DNA of 32,000 nt. Source: Promethearchaeota archaeon. GTDB taxonomy: Archaea > Asgardarchaeota > Lokiarchaeia > Sigyniarchaeales > SOKP01. The notes beneath the pieces are model-generated. The model was not told where the DNA came from, searched no databases, and saw nothing but the letters and a program-made list of their open reading frames with translations. Positions 5,161-21,965 of the stretch are shown in pieces; positions within the stretch are counted from its first letter, which is position 1; each line of letters starts with the position of its first letter. Made by a program: the position numbers and the translations under genes. The stretch lies in contig JAUWGH010000002.1 in NCBI GenBank assembly GCA_030606485.1, positions 240,001 through 272,000 of the forward strand. Reading direction: 5' to 3'.

Positions 5161-5871
5161 ATGAAAGTTCTTATAAGTATACGTTCACTTGAAGAATTGC
5201 AACCTGCCTTAGAAGGAAAAGCAGATATTATAGATCTAAAGAATCCAGACGAAGGTTCATTAGGTGCAGCCGTTCCTTCATTTATTAAAAAAGTTAAAAA
5301 ATTGGCATTAAATAATTTAGTAAGTGCGGCAATTGGAGATATGCCAAACCTTCCAGGAACTGCAGCATTAGCCGCATTTGGAGCTGCAAAATCAGGAGCA
5401 GATTATGTAAAAGTAGGACTTTTTGGAGTAACTAATGAGGAAGAAGGAATAAAATTGATGACTGAAGTAGTTAATGCTGTGAAAGAGGCCAACTCAGATG
5501 TTGTAGTAGTTGGGGCTGGTTATGCGGATTCAAGATCTTTTGGCGGTGTTGATCCGTTGAAAATACCTAATATTGTGAAATCAGCAGGTGCTGAAATTGC
5601 AATGTTAGATACCGCTGTAAAAGATGGTAGAAGGTTATTTGATTTTTTAAATTTAAAGGAATTAAAAAATTTTGTAGATAATGCTCATAATCAAAATTTA
5701 TTGGTAGCGCTCGCAGGATCTCTTCGTACTGAAGATTTATCTATTATTAAACAATTAGGCGCTGATATTGTAGGATTCAGAGGTGCTGTGTGTAGTAATA
5801 ATGATCGGAGGAAGGGTGTTGTTACAACAGATCGTGTTGCCAAGATTATGAAAATCGCTAATAATTTATAA
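5161..5871 (+). CDS. mfnB: (5-formylfuran-3-yl)methyl phosphate (4-HFC-P) synthase, methanofuran biosynthesis
   Basis: IIDLKNPDEGSLGA, ADYVKVG, MLDTAVKDG, LAGSL and GFRGAVC match the MfnB/DUF556 signature, including the Schiff-base lysine. Confidence 0.92.
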   Translation: MKVLISIRSLEELQPALEGKADIIDLKNPDEGSLGAAVPSFIKKVKKLALNNLVSAAIGDMPNLPGTAALAAFGAAKSGADYVKVGLFGVTNEEEGIKLMTEVVNAVKEANSDVVVVGAGYADSRSFGGVDPLKIPNIVKSAGAEIAMLDTAVKDGRRLFDFLNLKELKNFVDNAHNQNLLVALAGSLRTEDLSIIKQLGADIVGFRGAVCSNNDRRKGVVTTDRVAKIMKIANNL

Positions 5872-8186: not shown

Positions 8187-8364
8187 AAGATATTTAATTT
8201 ATCTTCTAAAACAGAAAAAAAATGAACTAGTTTTTGAATTATAACCTTTCCTCCACAATTTTGTATATCTTTTAATCTAAAATTTTAAAACAAATTGAAT
8301 AATTAATTACTTAAGTTCAGAGAATGTGTTTTACCCCAATTTAATCAAAGAAAGAAAAACCATT

Positions 8365-9309
8365 ATGTCTGAAAAAAACTTAAAATATTCATTATATCTA
8401 GGATGTGTTATTCCCAATAGATACCCTTTTATTGAGCAATCTGTGCGAAATGTGTTTAAGGAATTAGGAATAGGGCTGATAGATATGCAGGGAGCGTCCT
8501 GTTGTCCAGCTCCTGGAGTATTCAGAGGATTTAGCATACCTCTTTGGCTTGTTGTGGGAGCGCGAAATATTTCTATAGCAGAAGAGAATGGTGCCGATAT
8601 TGTCCTTATGTGTAATGGATGTTATGCTACTTTGCTTGAAGTGAATGTTATGCTAAAACATGATAAAAAAAAGCGGGATATTGTAAATGAGCATCTTGCA
8701 AAAATAGGTAGGGAATTCAAAGGGACAATCGAAGTAAAACACATAATTGATGTTTTATATTATGATTTTGGACTTGATAAACTTAAAGATTATACCAATA
8801 TCAGGTTCCCTAATTTAAGAGTTGGTGTGCATTATGGATGTCATATATTGAAAGATTCTACGCATCGACCATGGCATGGAGAATCTGAAGATCCGAGGTT
8901 TTTCGAGGAATTAATTGAAATAACCGGTGCAAAATGCATAGATTACAAAGATCGGTTAATGTGTTGTGGAGCAGGAGGGGCTGTCCGAACAGCATCATTA
9001 GAGGTATCTCTTGATTACACTAGAGAAAAGCTTGAAAATATGCGAAATGTTAGAGTTGATTGTTGTATGGTTTGTTGTCCATTTTGTCATTTACAACTTG
9101 ATTTAGGTCAAATGCAGGTTAATGATACATTTAAAGATATTATTGGGGAACCTTATAAGATTCCTATAATTTATTATACGCAATTATTAGGATTATCAAT
9201 GGGAATGAATCCTCGAGAGTTAGGATTAGTAGCCACTCATAATTTAGCGGGCGTTCCCCCATTTATTCCAATTAAATCATTTATGGATAAAATCAAGGAA
9301 CACATATAA
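8365..9309 (+). CDS. hdrB: Heterodisulfide reductase subunit B
   Basis: YLGCVIP, SCCPAPG, MCNGCY, HYGCH, MCCGAGG, CCPFCHLQLD. ATG 8365 preferred over the track's start at 8326. Confidence 0.95.
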   Translation: MSEKNLKYSLYLGCVIPNRYPFIEQSVRNVFKELGIGLIDMQGASCCPAPGVFRGFSIPLWLVVGARNISIAEENGADIVLMCNGCYATLLEVNVMLKHDKKKRDIVNEHLAKIGREFKGTIEVKHIIDVLYYDFGLDKLKDYTNIRFPNLRVGVHYGCHILKDSTHRPWHGESEDPRFFEELIEITGAKCIDYKDRLMCCGAGGAVRTASLEVSLDYTREKLENMRNVRVDCCMVCCPFCHLQLDLGQMQVNDTFKDIIGEPYKIPIIYYTQLLGLSMGMNPRELGLVATHNLAGVPPFIPIKSFMDKIKEHI

Positions 9310-9324
9310 AAGAATGTTGAGAAG

Positions 9325-11331
9325 ATGTCTAAAACTATAAATAATGATGAAGAAGTAAAAATCGGAATATATATATGCGACTGCGGTATTAATATTGCTG
9401 GAGTTATTGATACAACTACACTTACTGAATACGCAAAGACTTTACCAAATGTTAGTCTTGCAAAAGAATATACTTTTATGTGTAGTAGTATAGGGCAGGA
9501 AATGATTAAAGAAGATATTAATGAAGGTTTAATAAATCGCGTGGTTGTTGCGGCATGTAGCCCACGAATGCATGAGCCTACATTTAGAACAGTGGTTAGA
9601 GAAGCGGGTTTGAATGAATTTTTATTTGAACAAGCAAATATTCGTGAGCATGCATCATGGGTAAATTTAGATGATTCTGAAGGAGCATTAAAGATTGCAA
9701 AAGACCATGTGAGAATGGCGGTTGCAAAATTAAATGAATTAAAACCATTAGAAGTTGAGCTTGTAAAAGTTGAGCCGACTTGTTTAATAATTGGTGCCGG
9801 AATTGCTGGGATGTATGCATCCTTAGATTTGGCACAAGAAGGATATGATGTTTATTTGGTAGAAAAAGAACCGACCATAGGAGGACATATGGCACAATTA
9901 GATAAGACCTTTCCAACAATGGATTGCTCGGCATGTATCTTAACGCCAAAAATGGTAGATGTTGAGAGAGAGGAAAAAATTCATCTTATGACATATTCCG
10001 AAGTTGATAATGTAGATGGATATGTAGGCAATTTTGATGTTACCATAAAGAAAAAACCTCATTATATTGATCAAGAAGCATGTACAGGATGCGGAGCATG
10101 CGCTATAGAGTGTCCAGTTATTTGCGGGAATGAATTTGAGTTGGGTATAGGAACTAGAAAAGCAGCTTATATTCCATTTCCACAAGCAATTCCTGGGAAA
10201 TATACGATTGATATGACTAAATGTATTAAATGTGGTATATGCGCAAGTCCCGATGTTTGTGAACCAGATGCTATAAGATTAGATCAGAAACCGGAATATA
10301 TAGACGTGAAAGTAGGAACAATTATTGCTGCTACAGGATGGGATTTATATGATCCAACAGAACTAAAGCAATATGGTTACGGAAAGTATCCAAACGTGAT
10401 AACTGGCTTTGAAATGGAAAGATTATTAAGTTCATATGGTCCTCTTGAAGGGAAACCTGTAAGACCTTCTGATTTAAAACCACCACATGTTTTAGGATTT
10501 CTACAATGTGTAGGTAGTAGGGATTTCCGTCCAGGAAAGAATAAATATTGTTCCCGTGTTTGTTGTATGTATGCAACGAAACAAGCTAGACAGTATAAAG
10601 AAAAACATCCGGAAGCGTCCGTTTATATCTTTTACACGGATATAAGAGCCTTTGGCAAGGGATATGAAGAATTTTATGAATCCGCAGGAGAAAATTTTAA
10701 TATTAAATTTATTCGCGGAAGAATTGGAGAACTGTATGAAAATAAAGATCACAGCCTTATTGTTCGGGCTGAAGATACTTTCCTTCAAAAACAAATTGAG
10801 ATAAAGTTAGATATGTTAGTGTTATCATGCGGTTTAGAGCCAAGGCATGATTCCGACCAGATTGCATCACTACTTACTATTCAAAAATCATCTGATGGGT
10901 TTTTCATGGAAGCTCATCCAAAACTTCGTCCGGTTGATACACTAACAAGTGGAATTTTCATTGCAGGTGTTGCCCAAGGGCCAAAGGATATCCCTGACAC
11001 TGTAGCTCAGGCAAAAGGAGCAGCATCCAGTGCTGCTACATTAATGGCAATGGGAGAATTTGCAATCGAACCGTATTATTCTATAGTTCTAGAGCAAAAA
11101 TGTAGCGGATGTAAATCATGCCAAAGTTTATGTCCGTTTAATGCAATAAGTTTTGATGTGATTAAAAATATTGCAGTAATCAATAAAGCACTTTGTAAAG
11201 GCTGCGGAACATGCGCTGCGGCTTGTCCATCAGATGCTATTGTCCAGAATCACTTTTCAGATGATCAAATTTTTGCCATGATCAATACAGCTATTCCACC
11301 ACTAGCAAAAACAGAAAATGGGGGTAAATAA
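9325..11331 (+). CDS. hdrA: Heterodisulfide reductase subunit A (FAD, electron-bifurcating)
   Basis: ICDCGINIAG, VAACSPRMHEPTFR, IGAGIAG, LDKTFPTMDCSAC, FEMER, CSRVCCMYATKQ, HPKLRPVDT, plus inserted and C-terminal ferredoxin domains. Confidence 0.97.
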   Translation: MSKTINNDEEVKIGIYICDCGINIAGVIDTTTLTEYAKTLPNVSLAKEYTFMCSSIGQEMIKEDINEGLINRVVVAACSPRMHEPTFRTVVREAGLNEFLFEQANIREHASWVNLDDSEGALKIAKDHVRMAVAKLNELKPLEVELVKVEPTCLIIGAGIAGMYASLDLAQEGYDVYLVEKEPTIGGHMAQLDKTFPTMDCSACILTPKMVDVEREEKIHLMTYSEVDNVDGYVGNFDVTIKKKPHYIDQEACTGCGACAIECPVICGNEFELGIGTRKAAYIPFPQAIPGKYTIDMTKCIKCGICASPDVCEPDAIRLDQKPEYIDVKVGTIIAATGWDLYDPTELKQYGYGKYPNVITGFEMERLLSSYGPLEGKPVRPSDLKPPHVLGFLQCVGSRDFRPGKNKYCSRVCCMYATKQARQYKEKHPEASVYIFYTDIRAFGKGYEEFYESAGENFNIKFIRGRIGELYENKDHSLIVRAEDTFLQKQIEIKLDMLVLSCGLEPRHDSDQIASLLTIQKSSDGFFMEAHPKLRPVDTLTSGIFIAGVAQGPKDIPDTVAQAKGAASSAATLMAMGEFAIEPYYSIVLEQKCSGCKSCQSLCPFNAISFDVIKNIAVINKALCKGCGTCAAACPSDAIVQNHFSDDQIFAMINTAIPPLAKTENGGK

Positions 11332-11332
11332 T

Positions 11333-11761
11333 ATGGCCGAAGTGAAGGAGGATTTTGACCCTTATATTTTAGGAATTTGCTGTAATTGGTGTACATATGC
11401 TGGTGCGGACCAAGCAGGTACGAGCCGTATGCAAAGACCTGCAAATCTAAGAATTCTAAGAGTTATGTGTGGGGGGCGGATGGAACCACTGATGGTAATT
11501 CAAGCATTAAAAAATGGTGCGGATGGTGTTCTTGTAAGTCATTGTCATGTCGGTGATTGTCATTATGTAGAGGGAAATCTTAAAACATTTCGAAAAATGC
11601 CATTATTTCTAAAAATGCTTGAACAATTTGGAGTTAATCCAAAAAGAGTAAAATACACACAAGTTTCTGCAAGCGAAGGTGCAGAATTAACAGAAATTGT
11701 AAAGGAATTTGTTAAAGAATTAAAAGAAATTGGACCAAATCCATTAAGAATGGAGGAATAG
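11333..11761 (+). CDS. mvhD: [2Fe-2S] hydrogenase/Hdr iron-sulfur subunit D
   Basis: CCNWCTYAGAD, RVMCGGR, GADGVLVSHCHVGDCHYVEGN, VSASEG; ATG 2 nt after the hdrA stop. Confidence 0.95.
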   Translation: MAEVKEDFDPYILGICCNWCTYAGADQAGTSRMQRPANLRILRVMCGGRMEPLMVIQALKNGADGVLVSHCHVGDCHYVEGNLKTFRKMPLFLKMLEQFGVNPKRVKYTQVSASEGAELTEIVKEFVKELKEIGPNPLRMEE

Positions 11762-11764
11762 ATA

Positions 11765-12022
11765 ATGAAAGTTTATAGAATTGAAGTAAATAAGGTTTTG
11801 TGCACAGGATGCAACGATTGCGTGGTTTCATGTCCTGTAAATTTCGATCAATTAAAAGAAAAAGGTTATTTAAATGATAAAAACGCAGTTATTTTAGTCA
11901 AAAATGGCTATGCAAATGAAGTATATGATGAGAATAGAACTATAAATTGTACCGGTTGTGGAATTTGTGTTGAAATTTGCCCGCAAAAGGCAATTAATAT
12001 AAAAATAGTTCAACTGTTATAA
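11765..12022 (+). CDS. fwdG: FwdG-like 2x[4Fe-4S] ferredoxin
   Basis: CTGCNDCVVSCPVN ... ILVKNG ... CTGCGICVEICP, FwdG-type spacing, directly upstream of fwdF/D/B/C. Confidence 0.7.
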   Translation: MKVYRIEVNKVLCTGCNDCVVSCPVNFDQLKEKGYLNDKNAVILVKNGYANEVYDENRTINCTGCGICVEICPQKAINIKIVQLL

Positions 12023-12085
12023 ATCAAATAATTTTAATTAAGGGAAATAAAAAGATTATTAATAATTAGAAGTTGAGAAATAAAG

Positions 12086-12790
12086 ATGTCATTTCCAAAA
12101 ATATCAAGGACAATAACAAAAGAAATAGAAAGTGTTCGAGTAAAATATTTGATTGAAAGTACTCAGCTTGATTTAGATAAAACAAAATGTGTAGGTTGCG
12201 GAGTATGTTCAAAAGTCTGTCCTATGGAAGCTGTATCAAGAGGACCAGTAGGTGCAACAATAAAGTTATCTACTGAAGATCTTGTTCCAAATATATATGA
12301 TCCGAATAAATGCAGTTTTTGTGGAGTCTGTGTCTATATGTGTCCATTTTTTGCACTCTCAATTTATTATAATGATGAGAAAGTAGAATCTATTGATTTA
12401 CCGTTAGTTCAAAAGAAAGCATTACCTAAGCTGGAATTTGAATTGAAAGATTGTGAAAAAATTGGCAGACAAGCAAAGCAATACGTTGAAGGTAAAATAA
12501 GTTTTGTGCGTGAAGAATGTGCAGGTGGTTGTTCTACATGTGTGGATGTTTGTCCAACAGGAGCATTTTCTCTTCCCGAAAAGCAAAAAGAAACACCTGG
12601 TTGGGAAAAATCACTTAAAATTGAACTTGACGATGAAAAATGTATATATTGTGGGACTTGTGATAATGCATGTCCAACGGGCGCAATAAAGCTTGAAATT
12701 ACCGAAGTAAAGTATTCTGGTGATTTTAATGAGCCATTTTGGCCGGAAATGGTTGAGAGATTGAAAATGATGAGAAGGGGTGGAAAGTAA
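12086..12790 (+). CDS. fwdF: FwdF-like polyferredoxin, short form with four [4Fe-4S] motifs
   Basis: CVGCGVCSKVCP...RGPVG, CSFCGVCVYMCP, CAGGCSTCVDVCP, CIYCGTCDNACP; directly precedes fwdD. Confidence 0.75.
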   Translation: MSFPKISRTITKEIESVRVKYLIESTQLDLDKTKCVGCGVCSKVCPMEAVSRGPVGATIKLSTEDLVPNIYDPNKCSFCGVCVYMCPFFALSIYYNDEKVESIDLPLVQKKALPKLEFELKDCEKIGRQAKQYVEGKISFVREECAGGCSTCVDVCPTGAFSLPEKQKETPGWEKSLKIELDDEKCIYCGTCDNACPTGAIKLEITEVKYSGDFNEPFWPEMVERLKMMRRGGK

Positions 12791-12794
12791 TAGA

Positions 12795-13175
12795 ATGAAG
12801 TTTTTTCTAACCACCGGTCGTTCTATAGACCAAGGCGTTGCCCTTGAAGGTCAAAAGCTAGGAAGGGAAAATGTAAAAGCTTGTGCAATCTGTGAATTTG
12901 ATAAAGACGATTTTGCAAAATTAGACTGTATGATTGGAACGCCTGTCAAGGTCACTACAAATTTTGGAGAAATAATTGTATATTCTCAAATTTCAGAACA
13001 AGGACCCCATCCTAGCATTATCTTTATTCCAATGGGTCCTTGGGCAAATGCTGTTGTTGATTCCGAAACATATGGCACCGGTATGCCCTCATACAAGGGA
13101 ACGGAAGCAGAGGTTGAAGTAGTAAAGAGTGGAAGGATTCTTACAGCATTAGAAATAATTAAAAGTTATAAATAG
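12795..13175 (+). CDS. fwdD: Formylmethanofuran dehydrogenase subunit D
   Basis: LTTGRSIDQG, IFIPMGPWAN, TGMPSYKG. ATG 12795 preferred over 12780. Confidence 0.93.
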   Translation: MKFFLTTGRSIDQGVALEGQKLGRENVKACAICEFDKDDFAKLDCMIGTPVKVTTNFGEIIVYSQISEQGPHPSIIFIPMGPWANAVVDSETYGTGMPSYKGTEAEVEVVKSGRILTALEIIKSYK

Positions 13176-13190
13176 AAAGAGGCAAAGTAA

Positions 13191-14507
13191 ATGAAAAAAA
13201 TTAAAAATTTTGAAGATGTAGTTTGTCCTTTCTGTGGGACGCTTTGTGATGATTTAAAAATTATTTTAGAAGATAATAAGATTATTGAAGTAGATAATGC
13301 TTGTGCTATAGGAACTGCAAAATTTTTCTCATCGAATGTGTCAGAGCACAGATATACAAAACCTATGATGAGAAATAATGGCAAATTAGAGGAGGTTACT
13401 TGGGATGAAGCATTAAATAAAGCCGCTGAGCTATTAGCAAATGCAAAGAGACCATTATCATATGGATGGAGTTCAACCGAATGTGATGCGCAGCGAAAGG
13501 CTGTTGAATTAATGGAAATTTGTGGTGGAGTTCTTGATAATACCGCATCTGTTTGTCACGGACCTTCACTTCTCGCTATTCAAGATGTTGGTTGCCCAAC
13601 AAGTACTTTGGGTGAATATAAAAATCGGGCAGATTTAGTTTTATTTTGGGGCTCCAATCCGGTTCATGCTCATCCAAGGCATATGAGTCGATATAGTGAC
13701 TTTATTCGCGGTTATTTCAGAGTAGATGGTCATCTTGACCGAACAATAATTGTTGTAGATCCTAGAACAACTCATACCGCCCAAATGGCAGATATGCACA
13801 TTAGATTAAATCCTGGCGAAGATTATGAATTGTTTAATGCTATTAGAGCTTTGTGTCGTGGTGTAGAATTAGATGTTAAAGAAGTAGCAGGAGTTCCTAT
13901 CAAGCAAATTAAAGAGCTTGTTGAAATCCTTAAATCTTGTAAGTTCGGTGTATTATTTTTTGGTTTAGGTTTGACTATGACTAAAGGGAAGCATAGAAAT
14001 GTAGATGCAGGAATAAGTCTTATCAGGGAATTGAATGAGCATACTAAATTTAATTTAACTCCAATGAGAGGTCATTATAATGTTTCAGGAGCAAATATTG
14101 TATTTACATGGTCAACTGGATACCCATATTCCATAGATTTTTCAAAAGATTATCCCCGCTATAATCCAGGCGAATTTTCAGCAGTAGATATATTAAAAAC
14201 AAATGATTTTGATGTTACCTTGATTGTGGCCTCAGACCCCGCTTCAAATTTTCCAAAAGATGCCGTAATCAATATGCTAAAAAAACCTTTAATATCTGTT
14301 GAGCCCCATAAAACGCCGACTTCTGAAATGGCTGATATAGTATTGCCCCCAGCAATTGCCGGGATTGAATGTGAAGGAACAGCATATCGTATGGATAAAG
14401 TGCCAATTAGAATGAGAAAAGTGAAAAATGCTCCCGAAGATTGTATGGCAGATTATGAAATTATTGAAAAATTAATTGAAAAAGTAAAGGAGTTAAAAGG
14501 TGAGTAG
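13191..14507 (+). CDS. fwdB: Formylmethanofuran dehydrogenase subunit B (W/Mo-bis-PGD), canonical Cys form
   Basis: VCPFCGTLCDD...C, ASVCHGPS (metal-ligand Cys, codon TGT), WGSNPVHAHPRH, PMRGHYNV, YNPGE, GTAYRMD. Confidence 0.96.
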   Translation: MKKIKNFEDVVCPFCGTLCDDLKIILEDNKIIEVDNACAIGTAKFFSSNVSEHRYTKPMMRNNGKLEEVTWDEALNKAAELLANAKRPLSYGWSSTECDAQRKAVELMEICGGVLDNTASVCHGPSLLAIQDVGCPTSTLGEYKNRADLVLFWGSNPVHAHPRHMSRYSDFIRGYFRVDGHLDRTIIVVDPRTTHTAQMADMHIRLNPGEDYELFNAIRALCRGVELDVKEVAGVPIKQIKELVEILKSCKFGVLFFGLGLTMTKGKHRNVDAGISLIRELNEHTKFNLTPMRGHYNVSGANIVFTWSTGYPYSIDFSKDYPRYNPGEFSAVDILKTNDFDVTLIVASDPASNFPKDAVINMLKKPLISVEPHKTPTSEMADIVLPPAIAGIECEGTAYRMDKVPIRMRKVKNAPEDCMADYEIIEKLIEKVKELKGE

Positions 14508-15324
14508 AAGAATGGGAAAGATTGAATTAACTTTAAAGAAAGAACCTACTTTTTCTCTTGAAGCAGAATCAATAAGCCCTGATAATTTTAAAGGCAAAAC
14601 ACAAAAAGACATAGCGAATCTAATAATATTTCATGGTAATGAAAAACTTACACTTAAAGATTTTTTTGATATTAAAGGCACGGCTGGTAATAATTTAGAT
14701 GAAATTGAAATTGTGATAAATGGAAATTTGTCAAAAGTAAAAAGAATCGGGGAAAAAATGTCCGGTGGGGCAATTACAATTAATGGAGATGTGGGAATGC
14801 ACGTAGGAAATACAATGAATGGAGGAAAAATTATAGTGAATGGTAATGCTGCGGATTGGGCAGGAGCAATGATGGAAGGAGGCGAATTAGAAATTACAGG
14901 GAATGCGGGGCATTATGTAGGTGCTGCATATAGAGGGAATTGGGAAGGTATGACAAATGGAGTGATAAAAGTTAAAGGAAGTGTTGGATATGAATCAATG
15001 ATTTGGGCTCGAGGTTCTACTCCAAAAAAAAGATTCCCAAAATTAATCTGTGGTTCTGCAGGTCAGTTTTTAGGCCTTCATAATCACGGAGGTATAATTA
15101 TTTGTGAAGGTAATGCGGAAGCTCGAGTTGCTGCCGATCAAGCGCGTGGATTTGTCGTAGTGAAAGGAAAAATCGGAAGGATGATGCCGTCCTTTAAAAA
15201 AATTGGAGAAGTTTCAGAAATCGAATTGCCAGACGGTGAAAAGATCTCAGGTAAGTTTGTTGAATATAGTGGAGATCATGCAACAAGTGCAAAAACTAAA
15301 GGAAGATTATTTGTAGCAAAGTAG
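14500..15324 (+). CDS. fwdC: Formylmethanofuran dehydrogenase subunit C
   Basis: LEAESISPD and GxGxxM..G beta-helix repeats (RIGEKMSGG, HVGNTMNGG, YVGAAYRG). Start is either GTG 14500 (overlapping fwdB) or ATG 14512. Confidence 0.93.
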   Translation: MSRRMGKIELTLKKEPTFSLEAESISPDNFKGKTQKDIANLIIFHGNEKLTLKDFFDIKGTAGNNLDEIEIVINGNLSKVKRIGEKMSGGAITINGDVGMHVGNTMNGGKIIVNGNAADWAGAMMEGGELEITGNAGHYVGAAYRGNWEGMTNGVIKVKGSVGYESMIWARGSTPKKRFPKLICGSAGQFLGLHNHGGIIICEGNAEARVAADQARGFVVVKGKIGRMMPSFKKIGEVSEIELPDGEKISGKFVEYSGDHATSAKTKGRLFVAK

Positions 15325-16972: not shown

Positions 16973-18649
16973 TTATATTTTAATTAACTTAATTTTATCA
17001 GTATTTGGTTTCAATGATTCATAGAAGATTGAGCTATATTTTTTATAAAATTCCTTTTTCTTATCCATAATTTTTTCATAATTTATTGTATTAACTGTGC
17101 CTTTTGACCAATAAAGCGCACCTTTATGATTTAGATTTATCTTTTCACCCTGTTTTACAATAATTCCATTCTTAATCACGGTATCTATATCAGAAAAAGC
17201 TTTCTTAATCTCATCTATTTGAGAAGCTGAGTCTTTTTCTTGTAGATTTATATTTAAAATATTAATATCTGCATCGGCTCCAATACCCAAATTTCCTTTT
17301 ATATCTCCCAAGCCCAAAGATTTAGCTGGACTTGCTCGTGTTATGATTATTAAATCATTAATGGAAAAAATATCTTCAATACTGAAGATTGGATTGTCTT
17401 GTTTAAATTCATTATTCATATTTTCCATGAAAGTATTCCGAGAATTCTTATTTAACAACCATGAAATAATTTCCGGAATGTCAGTTAAATGGGCGTAATT
17501 GGGAAAATTTATTGAAAATTGAAGTTTCCATTTATCTTTTATCCTTAAAGCTAAATTTAAAGCATTTGACCATAGCCTGCAATACTCCGAATTATTCTTT
17601 TTTAGTGTCCTGAAAGTTTCAAAATGATCCCCTTCTGATTCAAATGCACCTTTAATTATAGGTGGCGTTTTAGGAGTTTTTTTCTTATCCAAATATTTAT
17701 TAATTAACCTTCGATCCGATGTAATTAGGGGATTTATAGGATTGAAACTTATAAAACCTAAATCAAGGTCAAAATTATCATTAGAATTGAAAAAATTAAT
17801 CAATTTAGTATCGTCGTTAAAAGAATAAGCAGATGCATGAGCTAAATGGAATATTTGAGAACGTTTAATTTTTGTTTGACTAGATTGACTTGGTTTGAGT
17901 CCTTGGGTTTTAATATCCTCTAATACTTTTATAGCATTTAACTCCCCGATCTCTGATTCATATCCATCAATATGAGCATGGATGGAATGGGGTAATCCAA
18001 TTTGCTCAATTGTTTTAGTCATATTTCTGAAAACGTCCAGTGCATTAAAATTATAAAGTCGACCATTTGTCGTTATATCATCTCTGATTTCTTTAAAATC
18101 CCATTCTTCTGCTTCAAAAGGATTATATACCTTTAATCCAAACCCCTTTACTAAATCCAGTAAGTCAGAGATAAATACAGACATCTTTTCAATGTCGCCC
18201 CTCTGATATTCCAATTCAAGAGGCCATAAATTACTGGCATTAATCAACATTGCTTTATCTAAAATTGGAATTTGGCCAAAATTAAAAATAGTTTGTTTGG
18301 CTAAGGATGGAAATACATTTGCCTCAACAATAAAAGTATACCCCTTTTTAAGATATTCTTTTGTTAAGTAATCCAGTGTAAGCCCATTCCAAAATTGTAG
18401 AAAATCTTTATTTTTTGAGCCCAATAAACGGATATTATTAGTTTGTTGTGAGGCAATATGCGTATGAATATCTATTGCGCCTGGAATGACTGTTTTACCA
18501 TTGGCGTCTATAGATTTTGTATCTTTTGAATTAGTGTGTCTGAATTTTTCTACAATTTTTCCTGATTCAATTAATAAATCCTTCTTTTCACCGGAAATAT
18601 TATTTATCGGATCAAAAACAATTCCATTTTTTATAATTAAATTGGACAT
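16973..18649 (-). CDS. Divergent FwdA/FmdA-like amidohydrolase paralog
   Basis: Colinear with FwdA: IIKNGIVFDP, PGAIDIHTHIA, KGFGLKVYNP, GLPHSIHAH, HLAH, ITRASPAKSLGL, KGNLGIGADADI. The TTDxPN motif reads SINFPN. Confidence 0.9.
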   Translation of the reverse strand: MSNLIIKNGIVFDPINNISGEKKDLLIESGKIVEKFRHTNSKDTKSIDANGKTVIPGAIDIHTHIASQQTNNIRLLGSKNKDFLQFWNGLTLDYLTKEYLKKGYTFIVEANVFPSLAKQTIFNFGQIPILDKAMLINASNLWPLELEYQRGDIEKMSVFISDLLDLVKGFGLKVYNPFEAEEWDFKEIRDDITTNGRLYNFNALDVFRNMTKTIEQIGLPHSIHAHIDGYESEIGELNAIKVLEDIKTQGLKPSQSSQTKIKRSQIFHLAHASAYSFNDDTKLINFFNSNDNFDLDLGFISFNPINPLITSDRRLINKYLDKKKTPKTPPIIKGAFESEGDHFETFRTLKKNNSEYCRLWSNALNLALRIKDKWKLQFSINFPNYAHLTDIPEIISWLLNKNSRNTFMENMNNEFKQDNPIFSIEDIFSINDLIIITRASPAKSLGLGDIKGNLGIGADADINILNINLQEKDSASQIDEIKKAFSDIDTVIKNGIIVKQGEKINLNHKGALYWSKGTVNTINYEKIMDKKKEFYKKYSSIFYESLKPNTDKIKLIKI

Positions 18650-18665
18650 TATTTTAATTCCTCTC

Positions 18666-19040
18666 TTATAAATTTTTTATTTTCTCTAATAGATTAGAGA
18701 TTTCTGGAACATCCTTTTCCGTTGGCTCAACTTCAACCTCTAAATTTTTAAAAAGAATTTTATTTTTAAAATCCCCAGTGATTTGATTAGCCCAAATTGA
18801 TTTATTAACGTAAATCATTTCTAAGGGAATAGATTCATCCCAAACAGGCTTTAAAACAACTGAACCATAACTGGTTGTTAATTTTAAATTTACTCCAGAT
18901 TTTGACACAATTTTATTATATGTTTCTGGATGAATTAAGCAAATGGCTATATTATCTTTGAGCTCTTTCTCAGATAATTCATTAATAAGGGTTTTTTGAT
19001 CATATTTTAACTCGCGTATTGTACTTAACAGTAATTTCAT
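18666..19040 (-). CDS. Divergent FwdD-like molybdopterin-dinucleotide-binding domain protein
   Basis: Aligns by eye with the fwdD product in this window (AIC, TTxYG, WAN, EVE), but TGRxIxQG and GMPxxKG are lost. Lies between fwdB' and fwdA'. Confidence 0.75.
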   Translation of the reverse strand: MKLLLSTIRELKYDQKTLINELSEKELKDNIAICLIHPETYNKIVSKSGVNLKLTTSYGSVVLKPVWDESIPLEMIYVNKSIWANQITGDFKNKILFKNLEVEVEPTEKDVPEISNLLEKIKNL

Positions 19041-19042
19041 CT

Positions 19043-20377
19043 TTATTCCTCCATTTTTTGTATTATTTTCAGCAAAATCTGCTCATCAGAAGGCAGATTA
19101 GCTGGTGGATCGATTATTTTTTGCAAATTCATAGGAATATTATCCATTCTATACACAAGTCCATCAGTTTCTATTCCTGTAATAGCCACGGGCAATATAA
19201 CATCAGCTAATTTTGTTGTAGGGGTAATAAAGCAATCAATTGCAATTATGGGTTTTCTTGTTAATTTGGAACTTAGGGTTATCGGTAAATTAGATATTGG
19301 ATCCGAAGCAACGATAATGGACATATCAAATTCGTCATCCTTTATTTTAGAAATTAAGTCTTTATTTGATTCGATAAGTTGGTTATCAGAAAATTCTATT
19401 TGTCCCATTTTACCCAATAAAGATAAAGAAACTTGGATAAAACCATTCATATTATGCCCGGTCATAGGAATAATTGAAAAACGACTTCTCTTAGAAGTTT
19501 CATTAATCAAATCAACCAATTCAATTAAAGCCTTTATAACATTTTCATTAGGATTGGAATTAATTACTCCTTGTCCAAAAAGGATTACACCATTTTCTGA
19601 ACCTTTCAAATTTAGGATAAAACGATTTAAATCTTGCTTATCAACACCAACAAAACCATCAGCTGGTACTTCAGATTTTTCCTTTAAAATCATATCTTTT
19701 AAAAATTGAATTAGCTCCAAATCTTTGCCAGGTTTTAAAGGAATATATAAATCTCGAACACCTGCAACTCCATAAGTCGCGGTTTTTCGAGGATCAACCA
19801 AAATTAACGTTTTTATTTCTCTTCCTGTTATTCTAAATTTACCTCTTGAAAAAATTGTTTTTGTTAAAAACTTTGGGTGGGACTCCTCAGCGTTAGAACC
19901 CCAAAAAATAAACACATCAGCTTTATTAATACATTCATTTAATGTAGTAGAATTGAATCCACTCTCAATAACATTCAAATAAGTTTGACCATGACAAATT
20001 GATGCATTAGACTCAATGAATCCATTTATTTTCTTGGCAAGATGTATTCCATTTATTTGTGCTTCACAAGTTGTATTAATAAAACCATATAGGAGGGGTT
20101 TTTGGGAAGAGTTAATAAGTTCTTTAACTTTATTTAGTGCCTCATCTAAGGATACTTCTTTTAACACACCATTCTTGCGAATTAATGGATTTTTAATACG
20201 ATTTTTGGAATTAATTTCATTTATTTTTTTATAACCTTTCAAACATAAACCATAAGTATCTAAAATTTCATTATTTTTGGAAAATACGATTTGATTATCA
20301 TCACAATATAATGAACATCCAGGACATACAAATCTCTGGATTCTTTCTTGATTATTTGTTCTCTGGGTCATTAGCAT
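19043..20377 (-). CDS. Divergent FwdB-like molybdopterin oxidoreductase paralog
   Basis: VCPGCSLYCDD...CLKG, ASICHG, FWGSNAEESHP, VDPRKTAT, IVASDP, TPTTKLADVILP, VYRMD; colinear with the fwdB product at 13191. Confidence 0.9.
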   Translation of the reverse strand: MLMTQRTNNQERIQRFVCPGCSLYCDDNQIVFSKNNEILDTYGLCLKGYKKINEINSKNRIKNPLIRKNGVLKEVSLDEALNKVKELINSSQKPLLYGFINTTCEAQINGIHLAKKINGFIESNASICHGQTYLNVIESGFNSTTLNECINKADVFIFWGSNAEESHPKFLTKTIFSRGKFRITGREIKTLILVDPRKTATYGVAGVRDLYIPLKPGKDLELIQFLKDMILKEKSEVPADGFVGVDKQDLNRFILNLKGSENGVILFGQGVINSNPNENVIKALIELVDLINETSKRSRFSIIPMTGHNMNGFIQVSLSLLGKMGQIEFSDNQLIESNKDLISKIKDDEFDMSIIVASDPISNLPITLSSKLTRKPIIAIDCFITPTTKLADVILPVAITGIETDGLVYRMDNIPMNLQKIIDPPANLPSDEQILLKIIQKMEE

Positions 20378-20421: not shown

Positions 20422-20925
20422 TTATTTGGCTGTATAATACTTAATTTCTATTGCATCCCGTGGGCAATACACTTCACATACCCGGCATTCACGCTCTCGT
20501 CCTTCTGCTTCTAACCTTCTACAATATTCCAAATTTAAAAGTTCGGATTTTCCGTTTTTTATTTGAAATAATTGATATTCATTAGGAGGGAAATCTGGTA
20601 ATTTTCCACTTAAAGAATTAGGACAATATCGAGCATTAACAGGACAAATGATCACACATACGCCGCACCCATCACATTTTTCAGTATCAATATCAATATG
20701 TAAGTCTTTTCCCCCCACTCCTACCCCTTCAAATAACTCATTTAATTTATCTAAACTTTGTTTATACTTAGGTTTGAGAAGTGGAGGACAATCTTTTGGC
20801 TGTTTCTCACCCTTAACCAATGCTAAGGCAAACGCCATACATGTAGGCAAATCACATTCCTTACAATTAGTTTTCGGCAATAATTTGTAAATATCCATAA
20901 AGTTTAGTTGCGACATTCTTTCCAT
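20422..20925 (-). CDS. FeS-domain (AcsC/RnfB N-terminal type) fused to a FwdG-like ferredoxin
   Basis: IYKLLPKTNCKECDLPTCMAFA...DCPPL, then CDGCGVCVIICPVNA and C-x11-CRVCEVYCP. Start may be ATG 20916. Confidence 0.8.
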   Translation of the reverse strand: MERMSQLNFMDIYKLLPKTNCKECDLPTCMAFALALVKGEKQPKDCPPLLKPKYKQSLDKLNELFEGVGVGGKDLHIDIDTEKCDGCGVCVIICPVNARYCPNSLSGKLPDFPPNEYQLFQIKNGKSELLNLEYCRRLEAEGRERECRVCEVYCPRDAIEIKYYTAK

Positions 20926-21077: not shown

Positions 21078-21965
21078 ATGACTAAGAAGAAAAAAGAAAA
21101 AAAAGAAGAAAAGAAAAAAGAGAAGAAAGAGAAAAAAGAAAAAAAAGAAGAAAAGGTTGAAACCAAAAAATCTTCAGATAAGGTTTACAAGCGTATTGAA
21201 GTCGACTTTTGGAGAACTTCTGCTCATATGAGCGAGTTAGGACTCCATAAAAGTTTAAAATATTCGGCTAAATCTAGATATTTTACAAAACAATTTGAAA
21301 TCGAAGGAGATATTACTATTGATGGAGATTCAGATAAAAGACAAGTAATTGCATATAATGAGAAGTCTTGGAAAGAAAAAAATTTAGCAGACCGTGATTT
21401 AAAGATAAGAACATTTACCCCTATTAAAGATGATAAAGGTGGAAATTTTACAGGCGGAATTGAATTAAGTACAACAGAATCCTTGATCCAATCATATCAC
21501 ATAAAAGGTGATCCAGGCGTTATTTTAATTGTTAATTTACCTCAGAATAAAAATTTATATAGAATTATAAGATCGAGACGATTAAAAGGATGGAAATTTG
21601 CTTTCCCTTTACTACCAGAGAAAGATAATGAATCATTAAGGGTTTTTGAAATTAAAGGGAAAGTTGGGCTCGGTCTTGATTTCGAAGTCACTGAAAAAGA
21701 AAGAAAGATCGTTGACATTGATGGAAAAAAGCTTAATCTTGGCGGGAAATGGGAGATTGAAATTTTTGATGAAGAATTAAGCAAAAATAAAACTTTCACT
21801 AAAATTCTCACTTTATTTGCATGTGCTTGCAAATTTTTAGAGGTTTCTGAAAAAACAGTAAAAGAACTTTTTAAAAAATTTGATGACCCTAAATCTGATT
21901 TTAAATTCAGCCCAGATAAAGAAGAACTCGACCTCTTTAAGAATCCCAGAAGACTTAAAGCATAA
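21078..21965 (+). CDS. Hypothetical protein with Lys/Glu-rich N-terminus and probable Tubby-C/LURP-one/scramblase-like beta-barrel
   Basis: The C-terminal pattern FEIKGKVGLGLDFEV...IVDIDGKKLNLGGKWEIEI followed by a hydrophobic helix (ILTLFACAC) resembles LURP-one family sequences; recognised by eye only. Confidence 0.5.
   Translation: MTKKKKEKKEEKKKEKKEKKEKKEEKVETKKSSDKVYKRIEVDFWRTSAHMSELGLHKSLKYSAKSRYFTKQFEIEGDITIDGDSDKRQVIAYNEKSWKEKNLADRDLKIRTFTPIKDDKGGNFTGGIELSTTESLIQSYHIKGDPGVILIVNLPQNKNLYRIIRSRRLKGWKFAFPLLPEKDNESLRVFEIKGKVGLGLDFEVTEKERKIVDIDGKKLNLGGKWEIEIFDEELSKNKTFTKILTLFACACKFLEVSEKTVKELFKKFDDPKSDFKFSPDKEELDLFKNPRRLKA
21084..21156 (+). repeat. 73-nt purine-only (A/G) low-complexity tract encoding KKE repeats
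   Basis: No pyrimidine from 21084 to 21156; recurring GAAAAAAAAGAAGAAAAG units. Confidence 0.85.

Follow-up and report, generated by a model that had tools for sequence, protein, structure and literature searches.

Every formylmethanofuran dehydrogenase (FMD) studied so far has the same four His, one Asp and carboxylysine; the Asp abstracts a proton from the amine of methanofuran (MFR), and Lys64 has been proposed as the gatekeeper of the formate cavity (PMC11656701). As for the beta-8 Asp in other proteins, its mutant D368A is inactive in PpOngB (PMC12017989), crystals of isoaspartyl dipeptidase with bound substrate were obtained by means of the same Asp-to-Asn change (PDB 1YBQ), and TrzN is described in a review (PMC6100074) as an active amidohydrolase with Thr replacing this residue; no quantitative data on Asp-to-Asn amidohydrolases were found in the literature searched. 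On the redox side, the Km for formate of the R. capsulatus formate dehydrogenase (FDH) went from 151 uM to ~402 mM upon the R587K change and to 29 mM upon H387M (PMC9804402), the two residues being the equivalents of FwdB Arg288 and His119. Variants of the Fwd architecture are also known, such as the extra partial fwdG2B2D2 operon lacking fwdC that Methanosarcina keeps beside complete fmd/fwd sets (PMC2838876), and the Fhc complex, whose A subunit is an active hydrolase and whose B subunit has neither the pterin nor the Fe-S motifs (PMC6926001). A survey of DMSO reductases counted 83 Asgard FwdB homologues and, in the portion of it available, did not set an Arg-less clade apart. The literature searched, which left most subscription papers out of scope, yielded no account of an altered second Fwd in these archaea.

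The stretch of DNA analysed here (the window, 32,000 nucleotides from a Promethearchaeota archaeon) carries four closely spaced minus-strand genes, G'B'D'A', of which A' is the last:

20422..20925, minus strand: G', an N-terminal FeS domain (PF04060, the type found in AcsC/CdhE and RnfB) followed in the same protein by a ferredoxin of the 2[4Fe-4S] type
19043..20377, minus strand: fwdB' (B'), a FwdB paralog
18666..19040, minus strand: fwdD' (D'), a molybdopterin-dinucleotide-binding domain with a short loop deleted
16973..18649, minus strand: fwdA' (A'), a FwdA-fold amidohydrolase paralog of 558 aa

The A' reading frame is intact, and its product looks like FwdA yet fails defining features, for which reason it is not classed here as a member of that family; the case is real and conserved, and amounts to an altered form of a known kind of complex. 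From the letters alone, a first-pass annotation had read in A' the motifs DIHTH, LKVYNP, HSIHAH, HLAH, SINFPN and HTHIASQQ, with an Asn at the place of the beta-8 Asp and a Gln at that of Lys64, and all of this was found again, with the Asn codon where it had put it. HMMER aligns A' with the M. wolfeii FwdA (5T5I_A) at an E value of 3e-60 and without gaps at the relevant sites. With numbers counted from the printed alignment, FwdA His57, His59, Lys178, His231 and His271 correspond to A' H62, H64, K173, H226 and H271, the last two His being the third of HSIHAH and the second of HLAH, FwdA TTD385SPN falls on SIN381FPN, and K64 falls on Q69. The codons concerned are:

18466-18464, minus strand: H62
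18460-18458, minus strand: H64
18443..18445, minus strand: Gln69 (CAA), equivalent to M. wolfeii FwdA Lys64
18133-18131, minus strand: K173
17974-17972, minus strand: H226
17839-17837, minus strand: H271
17507..17509, minus strand: Asn381 (AAT), equivalent to M. wolfeii FwdA Asp385

Asn381 is present in 117/117 homologues and in 81/81 genome copies (AAT in 66, AAC in 15), two sets that overlap, and the five residues H62, H64, K173, H226 and H271 are kept in both without exception, at the level of sequence only and among homologues of ~55-60% identity. Position 69 is never a Lys, being Gln in all 117 homologues and Gln in 78 and Glu in 3 of the 81 genome copies. Only 6/42 (9/48) of the Asn-majority columns of A' are fully invariant, and 22/42 (30/48) of the others tolerate Asp, to which Asn381 never reverts; since invariance is that rare and over half of these columns admit Asp, this residue is specifically constrained in the Lokiarchaeia family. 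The alignment also places changes at the conserved MFR-docking residues named in PMC11656701 (Leu235 to Tyr230 in 80/81, Phe274 to Ser, Ala or Thr274, and Met323 to Leu315 in 68/81), together with the new invariant residues S67, E145, E147, E179, D/E228, E231, R313 and D341, among which E179, D/E228 and E231 follow beta-4 and beta-5 in sequence, and R313 and D341 are near MFR-pocket segments.

Against curated profiles, A' stays below the cut-off of the FwdA model TIGR03121 (289.9 vs 392.75 bits) and above those of PF07969 and PF01979, and it meets the amidohydrolase-superfamily criteria, namely a barrel with HxH, a beta-4 Lys and the beta-5 and beta-6 His. An AF2 model (pLDDT 94, pTM 0.94), which superseded an earlier one built from a subfamily-only alignment where the HxH strand was poor (pLDDT 78), superposes on 5T5I_A with a Z of 50.3 and an rmsd of 1.9 Å over 542 aligned residues at 27% identity, the next family reaching a Z of 23.7. 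The register of Asn381 with Asp385 is confirmed as far as an ungapped alignment and the whole-chain superposition of a predicted structure allow, with no metal-acid distances measured.

B' passes the curated FwdB cut-off (TIGR03129, 365 vs 327.8 bits). Compared with the M. wolfeii FwdB, its four [4Fe-4S] Cys are found in 74-75 of 76 copies, the rest being gaps, and the equivalents of the Mo/W-ligand Cys118 (C128 in B') and of His290 in 76/76. The Arg288 equivalent is an Arg in 0/76 copies (Gly in 69, Thr in 4, the window's copy having Thr306), and the His119 equivalent is Gln in 70/76 and His in the window's copy. The window's genus, which keeps this His119, also shows a one-residue deletion in B' after the His290 equivalent (GH-N vs GHYN), and most of the family differs. 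D' still matches the FwdD profile, with N-T-x-R, Q, W-A-N (W-x-N) and F-K-N, and the binding of a pterin by B'D' is plausible from motifs that are largely kept, the cofactor itself being unproven. G', the first gene of the operon, is the most conserved, with a crude pairwise dN/dS median of 0.05 in comparison with 0.14 for A', 0.11 for B' and 0.21 for D' (the pairs are not independent). A promoter and terminator scan, done with a bacterial model, gave no excess over shuffles. Divergent from G', a plus-strand gene (21078-21965) encodes a 295-aa protein with a Lys/Glu-rich N-terminus and no Pfam or NCBIfam match, which adjoins the operon only in the window's genus.

A complete canonical Fwd is encoded in the same genome, where A- and B-type genes come in exactly two copies and fwdC in one:

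5161..5871, plus strand: MfnB-type 4-HFC-P synthase (methanofuran biosynthesis)
8326..15324, plus strand: canonical cluster, containing fwdB (motifs SVCHG and MRGHYN) and the genome's only fwdC
G000:C1:234457-236190, about 4-5.5 kb before the window: canonical fwdA (TTDHPN, Lys64)

Genes that by sequence likeness are hdrB/hdrA/mvhD-like and fwdG/F/D-like lie 5' of the canonical fwdB and fwdC. The MfnB-type gene makes it probable that the organism produces methanofuran; together with a ferredoxin-like small ORF and a gene for an aldehyde ferredoxin oxidoreductase it fills the plus-strand segment 5161-8101, which immediately precedes the canonical hdr-fwd cluster. As a control, the canonical fwdA of the Lokiarchaeia family carries TTDHPN (Asp) and Lys64 at 29/29 loci, the canonical fwdB having CHG at 30/30 and RGH at 29/29. 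Four canonical fwdA matches contain one in-frame stop (G050:C47, G056:C46, G209:C17 and G055:C7; TGA in three, TAA in one). There is one fwdC per genome (47 genomes with a match), and sharing of FwdC between the canonical Fwd and the paralog complex is not excluded.

Within this one Lokiarchaeia family the paralog operon is found in ~90% of genomes, most of which also have the canonical Fwd. Near-full-length intact A' occurs in 49/60 sampled genomes and B' in 95/105 genomes at least 85% complete, and 80 loci show the gene order G'-B'-D'-A' (G' in 70, B' in 76, D' in 79 and A' in 80). The operon never includes fwdC at these 80 loci, has no fwdF, and no close A' orthologs were found outside the family among 201 genomes of the phylum. 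Moreover, no conserved neighbours hinting at a substrate were found around the 80 loci; a Mrp/ApbC-type ATPase adjoins 52 of them and NifX-like proteins 12. Upstream of G' at these loci (L063-L142), about ten have NifX-like proteins and two ATPases running co-directionally into G'B'D'A', and others have a MttB-like methyltransferase and a PIG-L deacetylase. The B' query gave no FwdB-like match in G217, G226 and G229, genomes of family f2, which are single-contig Lokiarchaeia of 4.4, 6.0 and 4.3 Mb.

Within the Asgard archaea the paralog forms an ancient lineage. Three other Asgard families, two of which are Freyarchaeota and Jordarchaeales by their database names, carry a further D'-A' pair as well as a G'-B' pair in addition to the canonical Fwd, with Arg288 absent from 5/5 copies of B' (Ile or Ala) and Lys64 from all copies of A'. 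A 100/99 branch of the B tree splits Arg-bearing from Arg-less proteins, and a quick A tree, which is unrooted and in which long branches may attract, places the paralogs outside the canonical clade with a SH-aLRT of 99. Among Freyarchaeota A' paralogs of 97-99% identity the beta-8 site toggles between Asp (in 3) and Asn (in 8); most Jordarchaeales copies have Asn there, and the third family has Asp. In sister clades from other Promethearchaeota every His and Lys ligand has been lost, the full-length gene and the Asn being kept, and the G180 genome holds a ligand-less A' as an orphan, without any B'. From this distribution an order of events can be inferred, not formally rooted, where FwdC, Arg288 and Lys64 were lost first, Asp then gave way to Asn, probably repeatedly, and His119 changed to Gln last.

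Such ligand-less, full-length FwdA-fold proteins were seen at L239, L146, L197, L198, L201, L150 and L200, where the flanks examined contain neither fwdB nor fwdD, and are probable pseudoenzymes. At L149:8001-9659 (P0131 cluster), a further FwdA-like protein reads TTNSP (Asn) and has Val in place of Lys64. Ferredoxins and an ABC transporter lie on its flanks; it does not group with the Asgard paralogs in the tree and is possibly an independent case of Asp-to-Asn change. Distant A' paralogs repeatedly adjoin a HdrA(-MvhD) gene (L145, L151, L152, L197, L200 and L239). Outside the window, the unlinked gene G000:C12:33819-36149 encodes a fused HdrA-MvhD that is this genome's best match (47-58% identity) to the fusions adjoining A' paralogs in other Asgard lineages; this protein is a candidate electron partner, and the genome contains many further HdrA-like genes.

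What has been observed is the fold, the state of each key residue, the operon, the selection on it and its phylogeny. The reading that we favour from this, at a rough probability of 50%, is that A' is a metal-bearing, non-hydrolytic subunit with an amidohydrolase fold. It would belong to a second redox complex, G'B'D'A', derived from Fwd, specific to Asgard archaea and without a FwdC of its own, which most likely no longer interconverts CO2/formate and formyl-methanofuran. By inference, A' would still load metal through its four His, a Lys presumed to be carbamylated and the side-chain oxygen of Asn, a residue that could give an oxygen to the metal but not act as a base; with Asn replacing the general-base Asp, A' should be unable to make or break the formamide bond usefully fast, in keeping with the isoaspartyl dipeptidase and PpOngB cases (PDB 1YBQ, PMC12017989). 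Instead, A' may bind or trap a ligand and/or scaffold the complex, and the working centre would be the redox module, running from the Fe-S clusters of G' through the [4Fe-4S] of B' to an inferred Cys-ligated Mo/W-bis-PGD at B'D'. Arg288 of B and Lys64 of A would offer positive charges to the formate carboxylate at opposite ends of the internal channel, and because both were lost together the substrate, still a matter of inference, is probably not formate/CO2, a view that the Km values of the R. capsulatus FDH variants also support. The Asp/Asn toggling among nearly identical Freyarchaeota proteins implies that the base is dispensable there and, along with the repeated loss of ligands in relatives, suggests that the lineage has been kept for a non-amide role at A'. 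Conservation of the Fe-S Cys, of C128 and of the pterin-contact motifs in B' and D', together with the tight constraint on G', would support a redox module. The favoured reading also draws on a canonical Fwd in the same genome that covers the normal job. By analogy, G'B'D'A' would be the mirror image of Fhc, in which A is active and B dead. The first-pass inference, a metal-binding FwdA with altered or absent catalysis, is supported and agrees with everything observed, metal binding and loss of activity remaining inferred, and the beta-8 Asp (metal ligand and base) and Lys64 (formate channel) roles that it had given match PMC11656701. Beyond it, A' belongs to a co-ordinately rewired operon (B' without Arg288, no fwdC) in a genome with canonical Fwd and to an ancient Asgard lineage. 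That the four proteins assemble physically is an inference from gene order alone, and there are no metal, cofactor, activity or expression data.

Against the favoured reading, the five ligands and Asn381 are invariant and new polar and acidic residues have become fixed, a pattern that a new catalytic site would share; by analogy, TrzN could be taken in the same sense. The main alternative is a neofunctionalised two-site enzyme, possible but tentative, with A' active on a new substrate and coupled to B' via a neutral, non-formate intermediate. Either the metal pair would play the Lewis acid, in the hydratase/lyase-like manner of TrzN, or the base would be relocated among the new invariant acids. 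It draws on the ligands that stay invariant at such divergence, on an Asn381 that never reverts in a protein where Asp is tolerated in so many other Asn-majority columns, on the new residues after beta-4 and beta-5 and near the MFR-pocket segments, on the altered furan pocket and on the TrzN precedent. However, the Freyarchaeota toggling and the repeated complete loss of ligands indicate that this lineage tolerates a dead site, and conserved pathway neighbours that would indicate a substrate are missing. Equally possible but tentative is the proposal that G'B'D'A' is an undescribed, ancient Asgard two-site metalloenzyme, combining a Cys-ligated Mo/W centre without the formate Arg/His and an Asn-liganded binuclear site in a reaction on a neutral or non-formate intermediate, and possibly wired to an electron-bifurcating HdrA-MvhD module; if true, neither the DMSO-reductase nor the amidohydrolase superfamily would have had such a reaction before.

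It is doubtful that the complex is wholly non-catalytic, that is, an electron-relay, sensor or metal-cofactor storage/maturation module working with Hdr or with the canonical Fwd. Second-sphere catalytic residues are indeed lost in both A' and B', but neither the Cys that ligates Mo/W nor His290 ever varies, and the lost residues have been replaced by fixed ones (Gln, Gly), as if the pocket had been reshaped. The Mrp/ApbC-type ATPase and the NifX-like proteins near the operon would fit a maturation module, as the HdrA(-MvhD) genes beside distant A' paralogs would fit a relay; the Mrp gene, however, is usually divergent, and its linkage may only reflect common descent inside a single family. 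That the complex is still an isoenzyme of formylmethanofuran dehydrogenase, either slow or specific for another metal or direction, and borrows the single FwdC is very unlikely: the base, the formate gate, the MFR pocket and the FDH Arg have all changed, A' falls under the FwdA cut-off and the canonical copies of the family never show the A' and B' changes, although the fold is very near that of FwdA, B' scores above the FwdB cut-off, partial fwdGBD operons exist in Methanosarcina (PMC2838876) and each genome has one fwdC. Decaying pseudogenes or sequencing and assembly errors, for which the long branches in the A and B trees and the stops near the 3' end of the G006 copy could be invoked, were rejected on the conservation data, that is, on the intact reading frames of most family genomes, a dN/dS of 0.05-0.21 and the use of both Asn codons at position 381.

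All studied FMDs reportedly keep the Asp, and a strongly selected natural Asn form points to an unknown function in core metabolism, in a large and widespread Lokiarchaeia family and in other Asgard lineages. Databases label A' as 'formylmethanofuran dehydrogenase subunit A', and with this name and a B' above the FwdB cut-off, copy counts for Asgard CO2 fixation or acetogenesis, as well as reports of 'fwdB expression', may include a paralog incapable of it. Moreover, the graded series from Asp kept, through Asp/Asn toggling and Asn fixed, to ligands all lost is a test set for how a pseudoenzyme originates or a reaction changes.

Among the known systems, the M. wolfeii Fwd (5T5I/5T61) shares with this locus the whole-chain fold of A, the four His and the carbamate Lys, and the FwdB-, FwdD- and ferredoxin-like partners. 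It differs in that A' has Asn for Asp385, Gln for Lys64 and a changed MFR pocket and falls below TIGR03121, B' is without Arg288 (and usually His119), and the operon without fwdC and fwdF. The Methanosarcina fwdG2B2D2 is likewise an extra G-B-D operon without fwdC beside complete sets, but it has no A subunit. TrzN, the atrazine chlorohydrolase, is also a natural superfamily member without the conserved metal-ligand Asp, although it uses Thr, has another metal site and substrate class, stands alone and is unrelated beyond the fold. As in Fhc of Methylorubrum extorquens (6S6Y), a Fwd-derived complex appears to have one of its two catalytic modules off. Membership of Fhc is nevertheless excluded, since A' is the subunit that lacks the Asp base, the four-gene operon has neither FhcC nor a FhcD-type formyltransferase, and B' keeps both the Fe-S motif and the metal-ligand Cys.
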